Shown: in pieces, positions 3,707 through 19,209 of the stretch
Position numbering within the stretch: the first letter of the stretch is position 1
How the letters are laid out: every line of letters starts with the position of its first letter
DNA from: Escherichia coli
Lineage (GTDB): Bacteria > Pseudomonadota > Gammaproteobacteria > Enterobacterales > Enterobacteriaceae
DNA: 64,000 bases
Reading direction: 5' to 3' (one strand)
Assembly (NCBI RefSeq): GCF_003334815.1
Contig: NZ_QOWO01000009.1
Made by a program: the position numbers and the translations under genes
The notes under the pieces: model-generated
Seen by the model: the letters and a program-made list of their open reading frames with translations, nothing else
The model's database searches: none
What the model was told of the DNA's origin: nothing

Positions 3707-4111
3707 ATGCGTGCTTTACCGATCTGTTTAGTAGCACTCATGCTAAGCGGCTGTTCCATGTTAAGCAGATCCCCTGTCGAACCCGTTCAAAGCACTGCAC
3801 CCCAGCCGAAAGCGGAGCCTGCAAAACCGAAAGCGCCGCGCGCCACGCCGGTCCGAATTTATACCAATGCAGAAGAATTAGTCGGCAAACCGTTCCGCGA
3901 TCTCGGTGAAGTCAGTGGCGACTCTTGCCAGGCCTCTAATCAGGACTCTCCGCCGAGCATTCCAACCGCACGTAAGCGGATGCAAATCAACGCCTCTAAA
4001 ATGAAAGCCAATGCTGTATTACTGCATAGCTGCGAAGTCACCAGCGGTACGCCAGGCTGCTATCGTCAGGCTGTATGTATCGGTTCTGCGCTTAACATTA
4101 CGGCGAAATGA
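3707..4111 (+). CDS. rcsF: Outer-membrane lipoprotein sensor of the Rcs phosphorelay
   Basis: 134 aa; lipobox LSGC, proline/lysine-rich linker, C-terminal cysteines; stop overlaps the tsaA start by 4 nt. Confidence 0.95.
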   Translation: MRALPICLVALMLSGCSMLSRSPVEPVQSTAPQPKAEPAKPKAPRATPVRIYTNAEELVGKPFRDLGEVSGDSCQASNQDSPPSIPTARKRMQINASKMKANAVLLHSCEVTSGTPGCYRQAVCIGSALNITAK

Positions 4112-7530: not shown

Positions 7531-7647
<117 letters not shown>

Positions 7648-7722
7648 AAAAAACGTGCAAATTCAAAATGTTGAAATATATCCTTCTGGCCTGTTTTGCG
7701 TTTGTTTCTGTCTCAAGACGGG

Positions 7723-8433
7723 TTACTGCCCCAAACTACTGCAATCCTGGTTGGGGTAAAATTTCCCTGCCGTATCGGGTGCCAATACTTTAGTCGGCGC
7801 ACCGGTATCCGGATTACCCTCAAGCGTAAAGTGACCTTCTACTGACAGTAACACCGGTTTTTCACTGTGACCGCGCGCAGCCAGGTAGCTACGCTCCAGC
7901 TCTGCGTTATTCGCTACCATGAAACGTTTTCCGGTCGCGCAATCAGTGAAGGTCGCCGCATCAGCCATATAAAAATACATGCCCCGCAGGGTCATCGGCG
8001 TCATAGGTAAACTGGATTGTGCCGCTTCCAGCGTATAGTTGAACTGCGATTCAATCGGATTGCCTTCACGATCGAGCATCTCCAGCGCATCGCCTTTCGC
8101 CCGATAATATGACTTTTCACCTTTGCTGTCGGTTAATACCAGCTTGTCAGCGGTTCGCGCCCATGTACCGTAGGAAGCGAAGGAGGAAGGTTCTTCACGA
8201 GCACCGAGATAACGCTCATTCATCACCCATGTTCCGTCTTTTTCGAGGAACAGAGAGGTTTCGATTCCTTCGCAATCGGCACACGGCAGCACGCCGCGCC
8301 AACTTTGCGGCATCGGTTTCAGTTCGGCAGCCTGCGCCGGAGAAAGCGTATCGACTTCGGCCCGATTATTACATCCCATCAGAGTAAAGAGGCTGATTAC
8401 AGCCATCGCTGTCACTATCGCTTTTTTCACCAT
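7723..8433 (-). CDS. nlpE: Envelope-stress lipoprotein NlpE (CutF), Cpx activator
   Basis: 236 aa; lipobox LMGC; CxxC motif (LPCADCEG). Confidence 0.93.
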   Translation of the reverse strand: MVKKAIVTAMAVISLFTLMGCNNRAEVDTLSPAQAAELKPMPQSWRGVLPCADCEGIETSLFLEKDGTWVMNERYLGAREEPSSFASYGTWARTADKLVLTDSKGEKSYYRAKGDALEMLDREGNPIESQFNYTLEAAQSSLPMTPMTLRGMYFYMADAATFTDCATGKRFMVANNAELERSYLAARGHSEKPVLLSVEGHFTLEGNPDTGAPTKVLAPDTAGKFYPNQDCSSLGQ

Positions 8434-8446
8434 CCATTCCTTCTTT

Positions 8447-8869
8447 TTATTCCCGACCGCTGCGCACTTTGCCGCGCATCGCCTTCACGCTTGATTTTTG
8501 TGCTTTCGATGCCAGCCTGCGCTCTTTCGATGCACGGGTGGGCCGCGTGGGTCGTCGGGCTTTTTTTTCTGTTGTTAATTCTTTAATCATAGCCACCAGC
8601 CGGGCCAGAGCTGCTTCGCGGTTCAGTTCCTGACTGCGGTATTCCTGTGCCTTAATGACAATCACGCCATCACTGCTGATCAAATGATGGCTGGCGGCGA
8701 GCAGACGCTCTTTGTAATACTCTGGCAGGCTGGACGCCCGAATGTCAAAACGCAGATGAATAGCCGTTGAGGTCTTATTAACATGCTGCCCGCCCGCGCC
8801 CTGCGCACGAATGGCGGTGATCTCAAGCTCACCATCGGGAATAGCAACATGTCGGGAAATCACAATCAT
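8447..8869 (-). CDS. arfB: Peptidyl-tRNA hydrolase ArfB (YaeJ), ribosome rescue factor
   Basis: 140 aa; GGQ motif ([10 protein letters not shown]) and a basic C-terminal tail. Confidence 0.93.
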
Positions 8870-9411
8870 GAAGGTTGTTGCCAGGCGGTTAAGTTCACTT
8901 CCAGATTATTCTTATCATCCGATAACCAGATCACGCCATCCTGAATCGTTGCCTGCAGCGTCATGGTACGATCGGCAAAGGCGCTTACTTTCGCCAGTTG
9001 TTCATCGTCCAGATACCAGACGGAAAGATTGGCAAACTGCACACATTTGCTCTGATTTTGCTGCCACCAGATTTGCGCCGCCCGACTATTATAGGTAAAC
9101 AGCGCCACTTCTGCGGCCTGGGTGCAGGCTTTCTTAATCCGCCGCTCATCCGGCAGCCCCAGCTCAATCCACAAATCAATGCCCAGGTGATCGTTACGCA
9201 GCCACGCTTCCGGCTCATCATCGGCACACAAACCACGGGTAAATTGCAGACGTTCATCAGCATATTTCAGCCACGCCAGCAAGCGCAGCATCATACGCTC
9301 CTGGGTTTCTGAAGGATGGCGCGCCAGCGTCAGAGAGGCATCGAGAAACTGGTTGCGGTCGAGATCGGCCACATTAACCGTCGCTTTATAAATTGTCGCT
9401 TTAAGCGCCAT
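8866..9411 (-). CDS. yaeQ: Conserved protein YaeQ, function unknown
   Basis: 181 aa ORF whose stop overlaps the arfB start by 4 nt; N-terminus [22 protein letters not shown]. Confidence 0.9.
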
Positions 9412-9576
9412 AAGAAAACTCCTTTCGAATCAGGAGGCCATTGTAACGGAATACGTGCAGTTGCGGCGCTGATATTGCAGAAATGAGTGTGGTATAGTCA
9501 CCTTGCGAAACAGAGTTTATCTTCGTAGGCTTAGACTTGCATCCACGGTTAAGTCAGAGTGCTGACAGGAGGGCAT

Positions 9577-9777
9577 GTGGAAAAATATTGTGAGTTAATA
9601 CGCAAGCGGTACGCGGAAATCGCCAGCGGAGACTTAGGATACGTTCCGGACGCGCTGGGCTGCGTTTTGAAAGTGCTGAATGAAATGGCTGCCGACGACG
9701 CCCTTTCTGAGGCTGTCAGGGAAAAAGCAGCATACGCTGCGGCAAACTTACTGGTGAGCGATTATGTCAATGAATGA
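9577..9777 (+). CDS. yaeP: Small conserved protein YaeP (UPF0253)
   Basis: 66 aa; GTG start 9577 preceded by AGGAGGG; the track ORF starts at an upstream GTG. Its stop overlaps the rof start. Confidence 0.85.
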
Positions 9778-10024
9778 TACGTATCAACCAATCAATTGTG
9801 ATGATTACGATAATCTTGAGCTCGCCTGCCAGCATCATTTAATGCTGACACTTGAGCTGAAAGATGGCGAAAAATTGCAGGCAAAAGCCAGTGATTTAGT
9901 CTCCCGCAAAAATGTGGAGTACCTGGTCGTCGAGGCCGCTGGCGAAACCCGCGAGCTGCGTCTGGATAAAATTACCAGCTTTAGCCACCCGGAAATCGGT
10001 ACGGTGGTGGTAAGCGAATCCTGA
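9770..10024 (+). CDS. rof: Rho-binding antiterminator Rof (YaeO)
   Basis: 84 aa from the ATG giving [21 protein letters not shown]; overlaps the yaeP 3' end by 8 nt. Confidence 0.9.
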
Positions 10025-10033
10025 TTGACTTTC

Positions 10034-10066
10034 GCCGGATGCGACGTTTGATGCGTCTTATCCGGC
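10034..10066. repeat. Single REP element between convergent rof and tilS
   Basis: GCCGGATGCGACGTTTGATGCGTCTTATCCGGC, an imperfect palindrome of REP type. Confidence 0.8.
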
Positions 10067-10072
10067 TTTCAC

Positions 10073-11371
10073 TTAACTAAGCGTTTTCTGCCAGACAAAA
10101 CTTACGCCATTCTCACCTTCAGCCACACCTTCTTGCGTCACAAATACCCCTGCCGCCGCAATCAGCGTTTCGCCATAAAACAGCAGTGGCGTGGTGTCAC
10201 GTAGCCACGGCGGCACGCCCAGCTCTTGCCAGATTTTCTTTAGCTTACGTCCGCCGTTACGCCCGACAATATGCAGCAATCCTGGCGCTTTGAAACGCAC
10301 GCTGACCGCTTCGTCTGCACGCGGAGGGCGAATATCGCCTCCCGCATTAAGCTGTACACTTCCCAGCCCCGCCGGTAATTCCAGCGGTTGAAGCCACGTC
10401 TGCCACGGCACAATGTTTTCGCTTTGCCCGGTGACGGATTTAATCCACCACAGTTGCGACTGATAGCGTCGGATTTCAAACGCGCCCAAACGTAAACAGG
10501 GTGAGGCATCTTCCCGCGCCAGCGCCACTTCCTGCCAGATCCTCACCAACGCGTCGCGGGAAGGCATCGGTGCATTCTGCCCTGCCAGCCAGCGGCGGAT
10601 AATCGCCGCGCGGCGGGCATCACTCATCGCCAGCATTGGCACAATCTGCAGCGTCCCCTGCGGCGATTGACAGTGTGCTAAATCATCTGCCAGCAGTTCA
10701 TCCAGCAGGCTCTCTTGTTCAGCACAAAGTGCGGCGCTGCGGGCCGTTGCTTCGGCAAAATGCGGCCAACGCTGCTGCAATAACGGCACTACGCGCAGGC
10801 GCAGAAAGTTACGATCGTATGAGTCGTCCTGATTACTTTCGTCTTCAATCCAGCGTAAATCATACTGACGCGCCCACTGCACCAGTTCCCCCCGCGTGCG
10901 GGCGAGCAACGGGCGAATAAGCCGCGTTCCGGCAAACTCCGAGACTTCCGCCATAGCCGAAAGCCCGGCAGGGCCACTGCCGCGTTTTAGCGCCAGCAGA
11001 AAGGTTTCACATTGATCGTCGAGATGTTGCGCGGTGACCAGCACTTCACCGGGCAACAAGGTGCGGGCAAATGCCTGATAACGTGCCTGCCGCGCCTGGG
11101 CCTCAATGCCCAGTCCTTCTTGCGCAAGTTGTACGCGTTCGACCACCAGCGGCACCTGCCACTGTTGGCAGACGTTTTCGCAATGCGTAACCCAGGCATC
11201 GGCATTGGCACTTAAACCGTGATGCACATGAATAGCGCGCAGAGCGACACCCGGATTTTCCGTCCGCCACTGCACCAACTGATGCAGCAGAACGGTGGAG
11301 TCAAGCCCGCCGCTAAAGGCCACCAGAATCTGGCGTGAGGTGAGAAGTTGTCTATTGAGCGTGAGTGTCAT
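10073..11371 (-). CDS. tilS: tRNA(Ile)-lysidine synthetase
   Basis: 432 aa; PP-loop SGGLDS near the N-terminus. Confidence 0.95.
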
Positions 11372-18612: not shown

Positions 18613-19209
18613 TCAGGACGCAAGTCCCAGTGCGCGTTTGACAGGCCCAAAGCTGCGCCGATGGTGTTCGGTCGCGCCGTGTTCAGCCAGTTTTTCCAGA
18701 TGAAAAGCGGTTGGGTACCCTTTGTGTTGGGCAAAACCATATTGCGGGAAAACAATATCCAGCGCCGCCATTTCGGCGTCACGCGTCACTTTCGCCAGGA
18801 TAGACGCGGCACTGATTTCCGGTACGCGGCTATCGCCTTTCACCACAGCCATCGCAGGCATCGGTAATTTCGGGCAGCGGTTACCATCAATCAACACATA
18901 TTCCGGCGCAATATGCAGCCCAGCGACGGCACGCTGCATCGCCAGCATGGTCGCATGAAGAATGTTCAGCTCGTCGATTTCGTGGGGTTCCGCGCGGCCC
19001 AGACTCCAGCTCAACGCTTTCTCTTTGATCTCTTCATAGAGCGCCAGACGGCGTTTTTCGCTCAGCTTTTTGGAATCATTCAGCCCGGCAATCGGGCGCG
19101 CCGGGTCAAGGATCACCGCAGCGGTGACGACCGCGCCAACTAACGGCCCGCGTCCGACTTCATCCACACCCGCAACCAGCTGCGTGTGCGGATAAACAAA
19201 TTCGATCAT
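18613..19209 (-). CDS. rnhB: Ribonuclease HII
   Basis: 198 aa; N-terminus [23 protein letters not shown]. Confidence 0.95.

Follow-up and report, generated by a model that had tools for sequence, protein, structure and literature searches.

The yaeQ-arfB-nlpE locus of Escherichia coli: a probably coupled gene pair and a tentative place for the nuclease-like protein YaeQ beside ribosome rescue

In Escherichia coli the gene yaeQ lies directly ahead of arfB, which encodes a ribosome-rescue factor, and the question raised by this arrangement is whether it says anything about what YaeQ does or only about how the two genes came to be neighbours. Although crystal structures of YaeQ date back to 2007, the protein is still without an assigned function. 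The window analysed here is a stretch of 64,000 nt of E. coli DNA, in which the region of interest has 100% nucleotide identity to MG1655 and is found in 5423 of 5426 complete E. coli genomes. The locus is the known yaeQ-arfB-nlpE operon of E. coli K-12, real and ordinary, and no differences from it occur in the window: Fig. 1E of the Rof preprint (10.1101/2023.08.30.555460) already draws the same 4-nt overlap, an arfB without a Shine-Dalgarno (SD) sequence and REP elements at both ends, and the REP/naRNA4 boundary located here agrees with that figure (Table 1). The first-pass annotation had described the overlap of the yaeQ stop with the arfB start and had placed nlpE 13 nt past arfB with all three genes in one orientation, and direct reading of the sequence bears out both, with every gene on the minus strand. 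It had also treated the three genes as a compact trio, of which the co-orientation and spacing stand while nlpE is uninformative, as this gene has its own SD and is missing from the locus in several Enterobacterales (L006, L007, L017 and L034-L036) that keep yaeQ-arfB.

Table 1. Features of the yaeQ-arfB-nlpE locus and its surroundings, in window coordinates
Feature	Position	Strand	Description
yaeQ CDS	9411..8866	-	ATG 9411-9409, TGA 8868-8866; 181 aa; YaeQ family protein, PD-(D/E)XK-like fold
arfB (yaeJ) CDS	8869..8447	-	ATG 8869-8867, TAA 8449-8447; 140 aa
yaeQ/arfB overlap	8869-8866	-	ATGA; the yaeQ TGA has three bases in common with the arfB ATG
arfB-nlpE spacer	8446-8434	-	13 nt, AAAGAAGGAATGG; carries the nlpE SD GAAGGA at 8438-8443
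nlpE CDS	8433..7723	-	ATG 8433-8431; 236 aa; envelope-stress lipoprotein, third co-oriented gene
yaeQ SD	9419..9423	-	AGGAG, 7 nt 5' of the ATG
Candidate yaeQ -10 element	9440..9445	-	TACAAT; (T/G)ACAAT hexamer kept at equal distance in L002-L025 and L027
arfB upstream stretch	8870..8894	-	25 nt within the yaeQ 3' end, without SD
REP/naRNA4 element	7568..7644	-	3' of nlpE; Rfam RF02564, 92.8 bits; one boundary of the five-gene yae locus
yaeP-rof pair	9577..10024	+	Divergent; NCBIfam equivalogs; genes overlap, rof without SD
yaeP-rof overlap	9764-9777	+	ATGTCAATGAATGA

The two genes downstream of yaeQ were identified by family models. ArfB is matched by the NCBIfam equivalog NF006718 over residues 1-136 (201.5 bits against a cutoff of 100), carries the GGQ motif at residues 26-28 (window 8794-8786) and shows a basic C-terminal tail in translation; by sequence it is the codon-independent peptidyl-tRNA hydrolase and ribosome-rescue factor. 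The physiological role of this enzyme in E. coli has been called unclear, and to be its substrate an mRNA must reach less than about 9 nt beyond the P site (PMC7427801). ArfB was undetected in every condition of the Mori 2021 proteome. NlpE is a match to NCBIfam NF007814 (397.7 bits).

The means by which arfB is translated may be approached through the predicted pairing of each start region with the anti-SD sequence, the duplex energy being -8.2 kcal/mol for yaeQ, -5.7 kcal/mol for nlpE and -1.5 kcal/mol for arfB, which is weaker than the median of random 20-mers drawn from the window (-2.4 kcal/mol). Because arfB has no SD, translational coupling to yaeQ is the most reasonable reading of the junction. 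Ribosomes ending yaeQ would re-initiate at the overlapping AUG, and termination followed by such re-initiation is probably the main source of ArfB; a protein made in this manner would therefore be scarce and produced in step with YaeQ. Folding of the junction RNA (111 nt) gave no significant structure (z = +1.14), and an Rfam scan inside yaeQ and arfB returned no family, the sole match being a sub-threshold one attributable to chance (scr4677, 18 bits). The candidate -10 element of yaeQ was not called by a simple promoter scan owing to a poor -35 match. An SD-sequestering hairpin at 9436-9419, flagged as terminator-like, was considered as a regulator and set aside, being found in Escherichia only and not conserved.

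An overlap of 4 nt is, taken by itself, weak evidence of a shared function, because 3 of the 26 co-directional adjacent CDS pairs in the surrounding 42.5 kb have an ATGA overlap and the other two, rcsF-tsaA (window 4108-4111) and lpxB-rnhB (window 19206-19209), link functionally unrelated partners. The divergent yaeP-rof pair resembles yaeQ-arfB in that the downstream gene, rof, is without an SD (anti-SD duplex -2.8 kcal/mol) and overlaps the stop of a small uncharacterised gene upstream, with the difference that its products concern Rho rather than the ribosome. According to the Rof preprint (10.1101/2023.08.30.555460), the coupling of yaeP and rof is universal in Enterobacteriaceae and absent in Vibrionaceae.

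YaeQ itself belongs to Pfam family PF07152 (COG4681; "YaeQ family protein" in the RefSeq annotation), its residues 1-173 aligning with model positions 1-172 of 173 at 239.1 bits (E = 3e-71), and it matches PDB entry 3C0U. The fold common to the solved YaeQ structures has an alpha-beta-beta-beta-alpha-beta core of the PD-(D/E)XK, or restriction-endonuclease-like, type; the best matches outside the family are restriction endonucleases, nickases, SfsA, NucS, HamA, NucC and Can2, and the relatives of this fold include RNA-cleaving ones, e.g. the CdiA-CT tRNase. The earlier statement that YaeQ has no established function was confirmed, as NCBIfam has no model for it and a 1998 claim concerning rfaH, considered below, has been contested. 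Fold comparison gave no pointer to an unrelated, standalone function, and a nuclease-like fold fits the suggestion of nucleic-acid processing.

Residue conservation was counted over a diverse alignment of 56 sequences, in which a polar cluster is conserved (H32, S34, E35, R39, R43, E66 and E/D83): E35 is present in 56/56, E66 in 51/56 with D in four more, and position 83 is E or D in 47/56. G85 is invariant and lies two residues past E/D83, where secondary-structure mapping, as distinct from structural superposition, would place the lysine of the (D/E)xK motif. This canonical lysine appears to have been replaced, and K/R93, K94, R39 or R43 might substitute for it; the title of Guzzo et al. 2007 likewise refers to a variant motif. 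Compared with the PD-(D/E)XK superfamily at large (restriction endonucleases, SfsA, CdiA-CT tRNase toxins), YaeQ is compact and single-domain, has an invariant glycine in place of the expected lysine and is accompanied by no methylase or immunity gene. The searchable literature contains no report of nuclease activity or ribosome binding by YaeQ. A transposon mutant of the Pseudomonas aeruginosa yaeQ gene (PA3726) shows altered tolerance to tobramycin, a ribosome-targeting drug (PMC3197603), which constitutes a weak link between YaeQ and the ribosome. Two database entries were rejected: a "YaeQ+RF-1 fusion" (P0018), which is not natural and results from an in-frame deletion between DGVI peptides common to YaeQ and ArfB in one E. 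albertii record, and a seemingly divergent yaeQ from a plasmid of E. coli (H63), which copies the present chromosomal region with many errors.

The distribution of the gene pair was determined at loci obtained with a genome scan based on a tighter alignment (A2), sampled from the best 80 hits of the scans; two representatives (P0148, P0196) lie on short contigs and were of little use. Tight yaeQ->arfB pairing is found in 31 of 34 informative Enterobacterales species, with junctions of -4 nt in 23 of the 31 and of -1 to +7 nt in the others, within a block (yaeR-tilS-rof-yaeP / yaeQ-arfB-(nlpE)-proS) whose synteny holds throughout the order. Pectobacterium and Brenneria retain yaeQ at the locus, from which arfB has been lost. 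This gene order is confined to Enterobacterales; Aeromonas, Shewanella and Pseudoalteromonas, the closest outgroups, lack it, and the pairing was not found at 137 of the 144 non-enterobacterial YaeQ loci (about 95%). The two genes occur in the reversed order, arfB->yaeQ on the same strand, with an 11-nt overlap in Chromatiales and symbionts of the tubeworm Lamellibrachia (L051, L052, L086) and with junctions of +1 to +15 nt in Gallionellaceae/Gallionella (L081, L092, L096); in L085 arfB lies one gene further upstream of yaeQ. In the YaeQ tree the reversed-order loci fall at separate positions, and identity among their ArfB proteins is only 51-66%. Within Gallionellaceae-like sequences the pairing is shallow, since it is absent from similar loci (L093-L095 and L097, 78-83% identical).

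By our own estimate, about 0.04 chance adjacencies would be expected, given some 73 non-enterobacterial YaeQ lineages (clustered at 75% identity) and a chance of roughly 2 in 3500 per genome. It is the recurrence of the pairing across the phylogeny, rather than the overlap, that appears to go beyond chance. When the neighbours of yaeQ were clustered in an unbiased manner from all ORFs of the loci, arfB was not the top recurring one, an FKBP isomerase, DUF1415, YaiI and a hydrolase being equally common or commoner. Other neighbours are also ribosome-related: a gene for a SUI1/YciH-family translation factor lies 52-77 nt downstream of yaeQ at 9/9 informative Nitrospira loci, a YlqF/RbgA ribosome-biogenesis GTPase gene is divergent from yaeQ in Pseudoalteromonas, and genes for a DeaD helicase and an ABC-F protein flank it in L091. 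Conservation of the neighbourhood across Proteobacteria, which the first-pass annotation had proposed as a check, gave a mixed picture, the yaeQ->arfB order being restricted to Enterobacterales and a tight pairing in reversed order occurring in at least two unrelated lineages. Its guilt-by-association hint toward translation stress or nucleic-acid processing is supported in part: it gains from this recurrence, from the Nitrospira SUI1 pairing and from the nuclease-like fold, and loses from the absence of the pair at about 95% of the other loci.

We consider it somewhat short of an even chance, with a probability of about 0.45, that yaeQ and arfB are paired because their products work together at the ribosome, in which case YaeQ would be a metal-dependent nuclease or an RNA-binding protein with ribosome-bound RNA as its target. 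More specific versions of this proposal are unlikely. YaeQ may cut or trim mRNA on the downstream side of a stalled ribosome, which would yield a short mRNA and hence a substrate for ArfB, given the length requirement noted above; alternatively, it may degrade the faulty message once rescue is done. Unlikelier still by a little is a role as a ribosome-associated PD-(D/E)XK RNase, the hitherto unrecognised nuclease arm of codon-independent rescue, which would cleave mRNA on stalled or idle ribosomes, so leaving the short 3' overhang needed by ArfB or removing the defective message, and which would have been recruited repeatedly beside small 30S-binding factors, namely ArfB in Enterobacterales, Gallionellaceae and Chromatiales and SUI1/YciH in Nitrospira. 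A direct YaeQ-ArfB complex was modelled as a linker fusion with AF2 from 26 paired sequences, giving a pTM of 0.51 with folded domains and no confident mutual placement; this may be taken as a weak negative, because the ribosome could be the place where the two come together. A translation-related inference for yaeQ was already made by GeCoViz in 2022 (PMC9252766), and no literature linking YaeQ to ribosome rescue was found beyond that work and the Rof preprint. The recurrence in reversed order, the SUI1 pairing in Nitrospira, the absence from most lineages and the local overlap controls are new here.

The arrangement may also be a historical accident, in which arfB came to lie behind yaeQ before the Enterobacterales diversified, lost the ribosome-binding site it had and now borrows the translation of yaeQ, which would hold ArfB at a low, constitutive level while YaeQ serves a function unrelated to rescue. 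This is possible and in our view rather doubtful. Synteny of the block across Enterobacterales is what plain vertical inheritance would be expected to leave, the great majority of other YaeQ lineages have no arfB link, and Pectobacterium and Brenneria do without arfB at the locus. The operon further includes the functionally unrelated nlpE, the nearby rcsF-tsaA and lpxB-rnhB overlaps join unrelated genes, no YaeQ-ArfB complex was predicted, and a survey of release-factor neighbourhoods did not note the association, finding no conserved partner of ArfB but a pseudouridine synthase (PMC6514570). Against an accident, however, stands the return of arfB, a partner named beforehand, to the side of yaeQ in Gallionellaceae and in Chromatiales and tubeworm symbionts, in the opposite order and overlapping or near-abutting; the pairing of yaeQ with another small ribosome-binding factor in Nitrospira would also be left unexplained.

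Two further explanations set aside the position of arfB or replace the ribosome with another target. Like most PD-(D/E)XK proteins, YaeQ could be a DNA-directed nuclease that serves repair, recombination or protection from foreign DNA, to which its best fold matches and the small GIY-YIG nuclease gene that immediately precedes yaeQ in L087 and in Photobacterium (L178) would lend some colour. We regard this as improbable: comparison of YaeQ with the PADLOC defence models gave 0 families and PHROGs gave nothing significant, yaeQ is a single-copy core gene of essentially all E. coli, no methyltransferase or immunity partner occurs in the neighbourhoods examined, and the gene is essentially absent from phages and true mobile plasmids. 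The 37 plasmid matches obtained are chromids, megaplasmids or mislabelled chromosomes, 34 of them non-mobilizable, and a part for YaeQ in defence or mobile elements was rejected on the PADLOC, PHROGs and plasmid/phage results. A role in transcription elongation or antitermination, which we hold to be highly improbable, goes back to Wong et al. 1998, where multicopy yaeQ was reported to make up for the loss of RfaH, and yaeQ does divergently adjoin rof, the gene of a Rho inhibitor. That claim was contested in 2004; a multicopy clone also carrying rof could conceivably give the suppression, the YaeQ fold is nuclease-like and not NusG/KOW-like, and the adjacency of yaeQ and rof is limited to Enterobacterales.

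A shared job of YaeQ and ArfB at the ribosome would have a parallel in the pairing of prfH (RF-H) with rtcB, in which a stand-alone release-factor paralogue likewise sits beside an RNA-processing enzyme and which has been read as coupling peptide release to the handling of damaged RNA (PMC6514570). RtcB, however, has a demonstrated RNA ligase activity and its association with prfH is widely conserved, whereas YaeQ has a different fold and a putative activity and lies beside arfB in a minority of lineages only. Endonucleases of the SmrB, MutS2 and Cue2 type cut mRNA at stalled or collided ribosomes by means of an SMR domain. They resemble the role proposed for YaeQ in being nucleases that yield truncated mRNA for a rescue factor, and differ from it in having an SMR domain instead of the PD-(D/E)XK fold and in that the role of YaeQ is proposed from gene arrangement and fold. 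The locus has the look of a textbook coupled operon, previously described, and the comparative evidence is only a modest, testable lead: if the pairing does reflect a shared job, an orphan gene of all E. coli would gain a function and bacterial ribosome rescue would acquire a nuclease step resembling that of SmrB or Cue2.

The window is E. coli K-12 chromosome, 100% identical to MG1655 over positions 7600-10100, and the region is present in 5423 of 5426 complete E. coli genomes. Direct reading of the sequence bore out all of the coordinates proposed for yaeQ, arfB and their overlap, and the 13-nt distance to nlpE, in the first-pass annotation (see table), and the gene identities are secure on the basis of family matches: YaeQ to Pfam PF07152 (E = 3e-71), with PDB 3C0U as a sequence match, ArfB to the NCBIfam equivalog NF006718 (201.5 bits, cutoff 100), with its GGQ at residues 26-28 and a basic tail, and NlpE to NF007814 (397.7 bits). 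The yaeP-rof pair lies upstream of yaeQ and is divergent from it, and this five-gene locus is flanked at both ends by REP/naRNA4 elements. The yaeQ-arfB feature is thus real and correctly described, and it is also already known: the locus was drawn in a preprint on the Rho inhibitor Rof (10.1101/2023.08.30.555460) and yaeQ was chosen as a worked example for GeCoViz (PMC9252766), therefore both the observation and its interpretation are in the literature. No mention of YaeQ was found in the ribosome-rescue papers within the literature searched, and a survey of release-factor neighbourhoods (PMC6514570) names a pseudouridine synthase as the sole conserved partner of ArfB.

Features of the yaeQ locus in the window, and of yaeQ neighbours in compared loci from other genomes or metagenomes (L-numbers)
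Feature	Record	Position	Strand	Remark
yaeQ	window	9411..8866	minus	181 aa
arfB	window	8869..8447	minus	140 aa
nlpE	window	8433..7723	minus	236 aa
yaeQ/arfB ATGA	window	8869-8866	minus	common to yaeQ TGA and arfB ATG
arfB-nlpE spacer	window		minus	13 nt, AAAGAAGGAATGG, arfB TAA to nlpE ATG
yaeQ Shine-Dalgarno AGGAG	window	9423-9419
Hairpin, 5 bp	window	9419-9436	minus	flagged terminator-like
TACAAT hexamer	window	9445-9440	minus	~30 nt upstream of yaeQ ATG
yaeP/rof overlap	window	9764-9777	plus	ATGTCAATGAATGA
rcsF-tsaA ATGA	window	4108-4111	plus
lpxB-rnhB ATGA	window	19206-19209	minus
yaeQ	L110	402-962		same strand as SUI1 gene
SUI1 gene	L110	1005-1397		same strand as yaeQ
FKBP gene	L062	8604-9038		signal peptide
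FKBP gene	L173	3618-3959
FKBP gene	L177	just downstream of 4522
YlqF/RbgA gene	L044	6891-7835	minus
GIY-YIG gene	L087	2227-2493
GIY-YIG gene	L178 (Photobacterium)	~214 nt upstream of yaeQ
DEAD-box helicase gene	L091	634-2436		ribosome-associated family
ABC-F ATPase gene	L091	3053-4645		ribosome-associated family

The Shine-Dalgarno sequence of yaeQ is strong (anti-SD duplex -8.2 kcal/mol) and nlpE has its own, GAAGGA, within the arfB-nlpE spacer (-5.7 kcal/mol); arfB has none: its anti-SD duplex reaches only -1.5 kcal/mol, against a median of -2.4 for random 20-mers drawn from the window. At the junction, the RNA shows if anything less structure than its shuffled controls do (z = +1.14). In the simplest mechanism, which we consider likely, arfB would be translated by reinitiation, with ribosomes that end yaeQ restarting at the overlapping arfB AUG; that ArfB was below detection in all conditions of one deep proteome fits such termination-reinitiation. 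The TACAAT hexamer upstream is conserved in L002-L025 and L027, all Enterobacteriaceae; as a candidate -10 element of yaeQ it would leave a very short 5' UTR. The hairpin, in which CTCCT pairs with the yaeQ AGGAG, was considered as a regulator sequestering this site and rejected because it was seen only in Escherichia, including E. albertii, and not in other genera; it is probably functionless.

The overlap alone is no more than chance would give. RefSeq places 26 co-directional adjacent CDS pairs in the 42.5 kb around it; 6 of these overlap at all and 3 overlap by ATGA, namely yaeQ-arfB, rcsF-tsaA (stress-sensing lipoprotein and tRNA methyltransferase) and lpxB-rnhB (lipid A synthase and RNase HII). 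Since the latter two link functionally unrelated genes, a 4-nt overlap here is poor evidence of shared function.

Conservation of the neighbourhood supports guilt by association in part: the pairing goes past the close relatives of E. coli to the whole order Enterobacterales and recurs independently elsewhere, but is absent from most YaeQ-bearing lineages, with 7 of 144 loci linked outside the order (tight same-strand adjacency in 6, near adjacency in 1). The best 80 loci from a scan of GTDB species representatives comprised 35 Enterobacterales species (34 informative) and 45 others, including Aeromonas, Shewanella, Pseudoalteromonas, Marinobacter, Neisseriales, Zoogloea and Desulfuromonadales. 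The yaeQ->arfB order was found in 31 of the 34, with junctions of -4 nt in 23, -1 in 2 and +1 to +7 in 6. In two Pectobacterium species (L029, L032) and Brenneria (L033) yaeQ is kept and arfB is cleanly missing from the locus, nlpE following ~80-160 nt after yaeQ (yaeQ stop ~8543, nlpE ~8624-8697).

Within the 45 other loci ArfB adjoins YaeQ in only three, all in reversed order: two Lamellibrachia-symbiont genomes with an 11-nt overlap, and one Gallionellaceae genome with a 1-nt gap. A complete Chromatiales genome has the same 11-nt overlap as the symbionts, and in a Pseudomonadota MAG one gene separates arfB from the yaeQ that follows. When the Gallionellaceae YaeQ was used as anchor in a metagenome scan, arfB->yaeQ was found in 2 of 66 loci with sufficient upstream sequence, both Gallionella/Gallionellaceae and the closest relatives only, and not with sequences 78-83% identical. 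Nine chromid or megaplasmid records (Vibrio, Photobacterium, Acinetobacter, Ralstonia, Halomonas and four Rhodobacterales) had no ArfB within 3-4 kb. The linked loci are scattered over separate places of the YaeQ tree, and with 51-66% identity among their ArfB proteins a recently transferred cassette is unlikely. With ArfB fixed as the partner before counting, we estimate that chance (~2 in 3500 per genome, ~73 lineages at 75% YaeQ identity) would give ~0.04 adjacencies; two or three lineages beyond Enterobacterales were seen, with opposite order and coupled junctions, and the association is therefore not random.

This is tempered by an unbiased clustering that took in every ORF with its end no more than 300 nt from yaeQ: ArfB was not the top recurrent neighbour, other recurrent families being an FKBP-type isomerase, DUF1415, YaiI, a hydrolase, a small GIY-YIG protein, a SUI1/YciH-family gene and YlqF/RbgA. 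In Chitinibacter, Acinetobacter baumannii and Ralstonia syzygii, three deeply separated lineages that equal the arfB recurrence in depth, the gene immediately after yaeQ encodes the FKBP-type peptidyl-prolyl isomerase. All 9 of 9 informative loci from Nitrospira (phylum Nitrospirota, N. defluvii-type sequences among them; L110, L115, L118, L120, L128, L131, L133, L143, L150; five 90% clusters) have yaeQ followed after 52-77 nt by a co-oriented SUI1/YciH-family translation-factor gene (PF01253, E = 2e-17), a pairing for which we found no published account. In Pseudoalteromonas (L044, L053, L057, L061) the ribosome-biogenesis GTPase gene YlqF/RbgA (TIGR03596, 351 bits) is divergent from yaeQ. 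Ribosome-associated families make up 3 of roughly ten recurrent families against a ~5% gene background (binomial p ~0.01, our own calculation on post hoc classes), an excess that is suggestive and not conclusive. Pseudoalteromonas also carries an alpha/beta-hydrolase-like gene after yaeQ on the same strand, and in two distant lineages yaeQ is closely preceded, on its own strand, by a gene for a small (~90 aa) protein with a GIY-YIG nuclease domain. In a single MAG (L091) yaeQ lies between a DeaD/DbpA-type DEAD-box RNA helicase gene, upstream and co-oriented, and a convergent ABC-F ATPase gene.

YaeQ has a PD-(D/E)XK nuclease-like fold. Across 56 representatives at no more than 50% identity, E35, R43, G85 and W115 are invariant, H32, P33, S34, R39, E66, W81 and P87 are at least 90% conserved, and position 83 is Glu/Asp in 47; from E35, E66 and position 83 it follows that the nuclease motif keeps its acidic residues. 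The invariant Gly85 seems, from secondary-structure mapping, to occupy the canonical lysine position. When YaeQ and ArfB were joined by a linker and modelled with AF2, no confident complex resulted (pTM 0.51); the two may still meet on the ribosome. One record only, P0018 (Escherichia albertii, 231 aa), is an in-frame YaeQ-ArfB chimera; it derives from a deletion between DGVI peptides (YaeQ ~158-161, ArfB ~67-70) that both proteins have by coincidence, and it has lost the ArfB GGQ domain. Probably it reflects a rare deletion or faulty assembly.

We infer, with a probability of about 0.45, that YaeQ and ArfB serve one broad process, YaeQ acting on ribosome-associated RNA. The earlier hint from guilt by association, toward translation stress or nucleic-acid processing, gains from the order-wide pairing and its independent recurrence, but most YaeQ-bearing lineages lack the pairing and the evidence is circumstantial; as a lead it is cheap to test and would not surprise a specialist. 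More speculatively, YaeQ might cut mRNA downstream of a stalled ribosome or destroy the released message, a doubtful proposal made because ArfB works efficiently only on mRNA that extends less than ~9 nt beyond the P site (PMC7427801). Somewhat less probable than action on ribosome-associated RNA is a purely historical operon, with no function in common between yaeQ and arfB; the block yaeR, tilS, rof, yaeP, yaeQ, arfB, usually nlpE, and proS is syntenic in Enterobacterales, as expected from vertical inheritance; against it, the recurrence in other lineages exceeds the chance estimate.

That YaeQ is instead a DNA nuclease for repair or defence is improbable: the fold would suit it, but YaeQ matched neither defence-system models nor phage protein families, and genuine plasmids and phages essentially lack it. 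A supposed plasmid-borne paralogue (L181; CP044308.1, 'E. coli plasmid pC27A-3', 49376-59777) was rejected, as this record, labelled a 134-kb plasmid, is a low-quality assembly of the present chromosomal region with broken-up, frameshifted copies of yaeR, tilS, yaeQ, nlpE, yaeF, proS and rcsF.

The old idea that YaeQ takes part in transcription antitermination is very improbable, and we conjecture that the adjacent rof, encoding a Rho inhibitor, might have produced that result. The rof gene, which overlaps yaeP, has no Shine-Dalgarno sequence (-2.8 kcal/mol). The yaeP-rof pair is a second coupled pair at this locus, a mirror image of yaeQ-arfB, and its coupling is already described in the Rof preprint.
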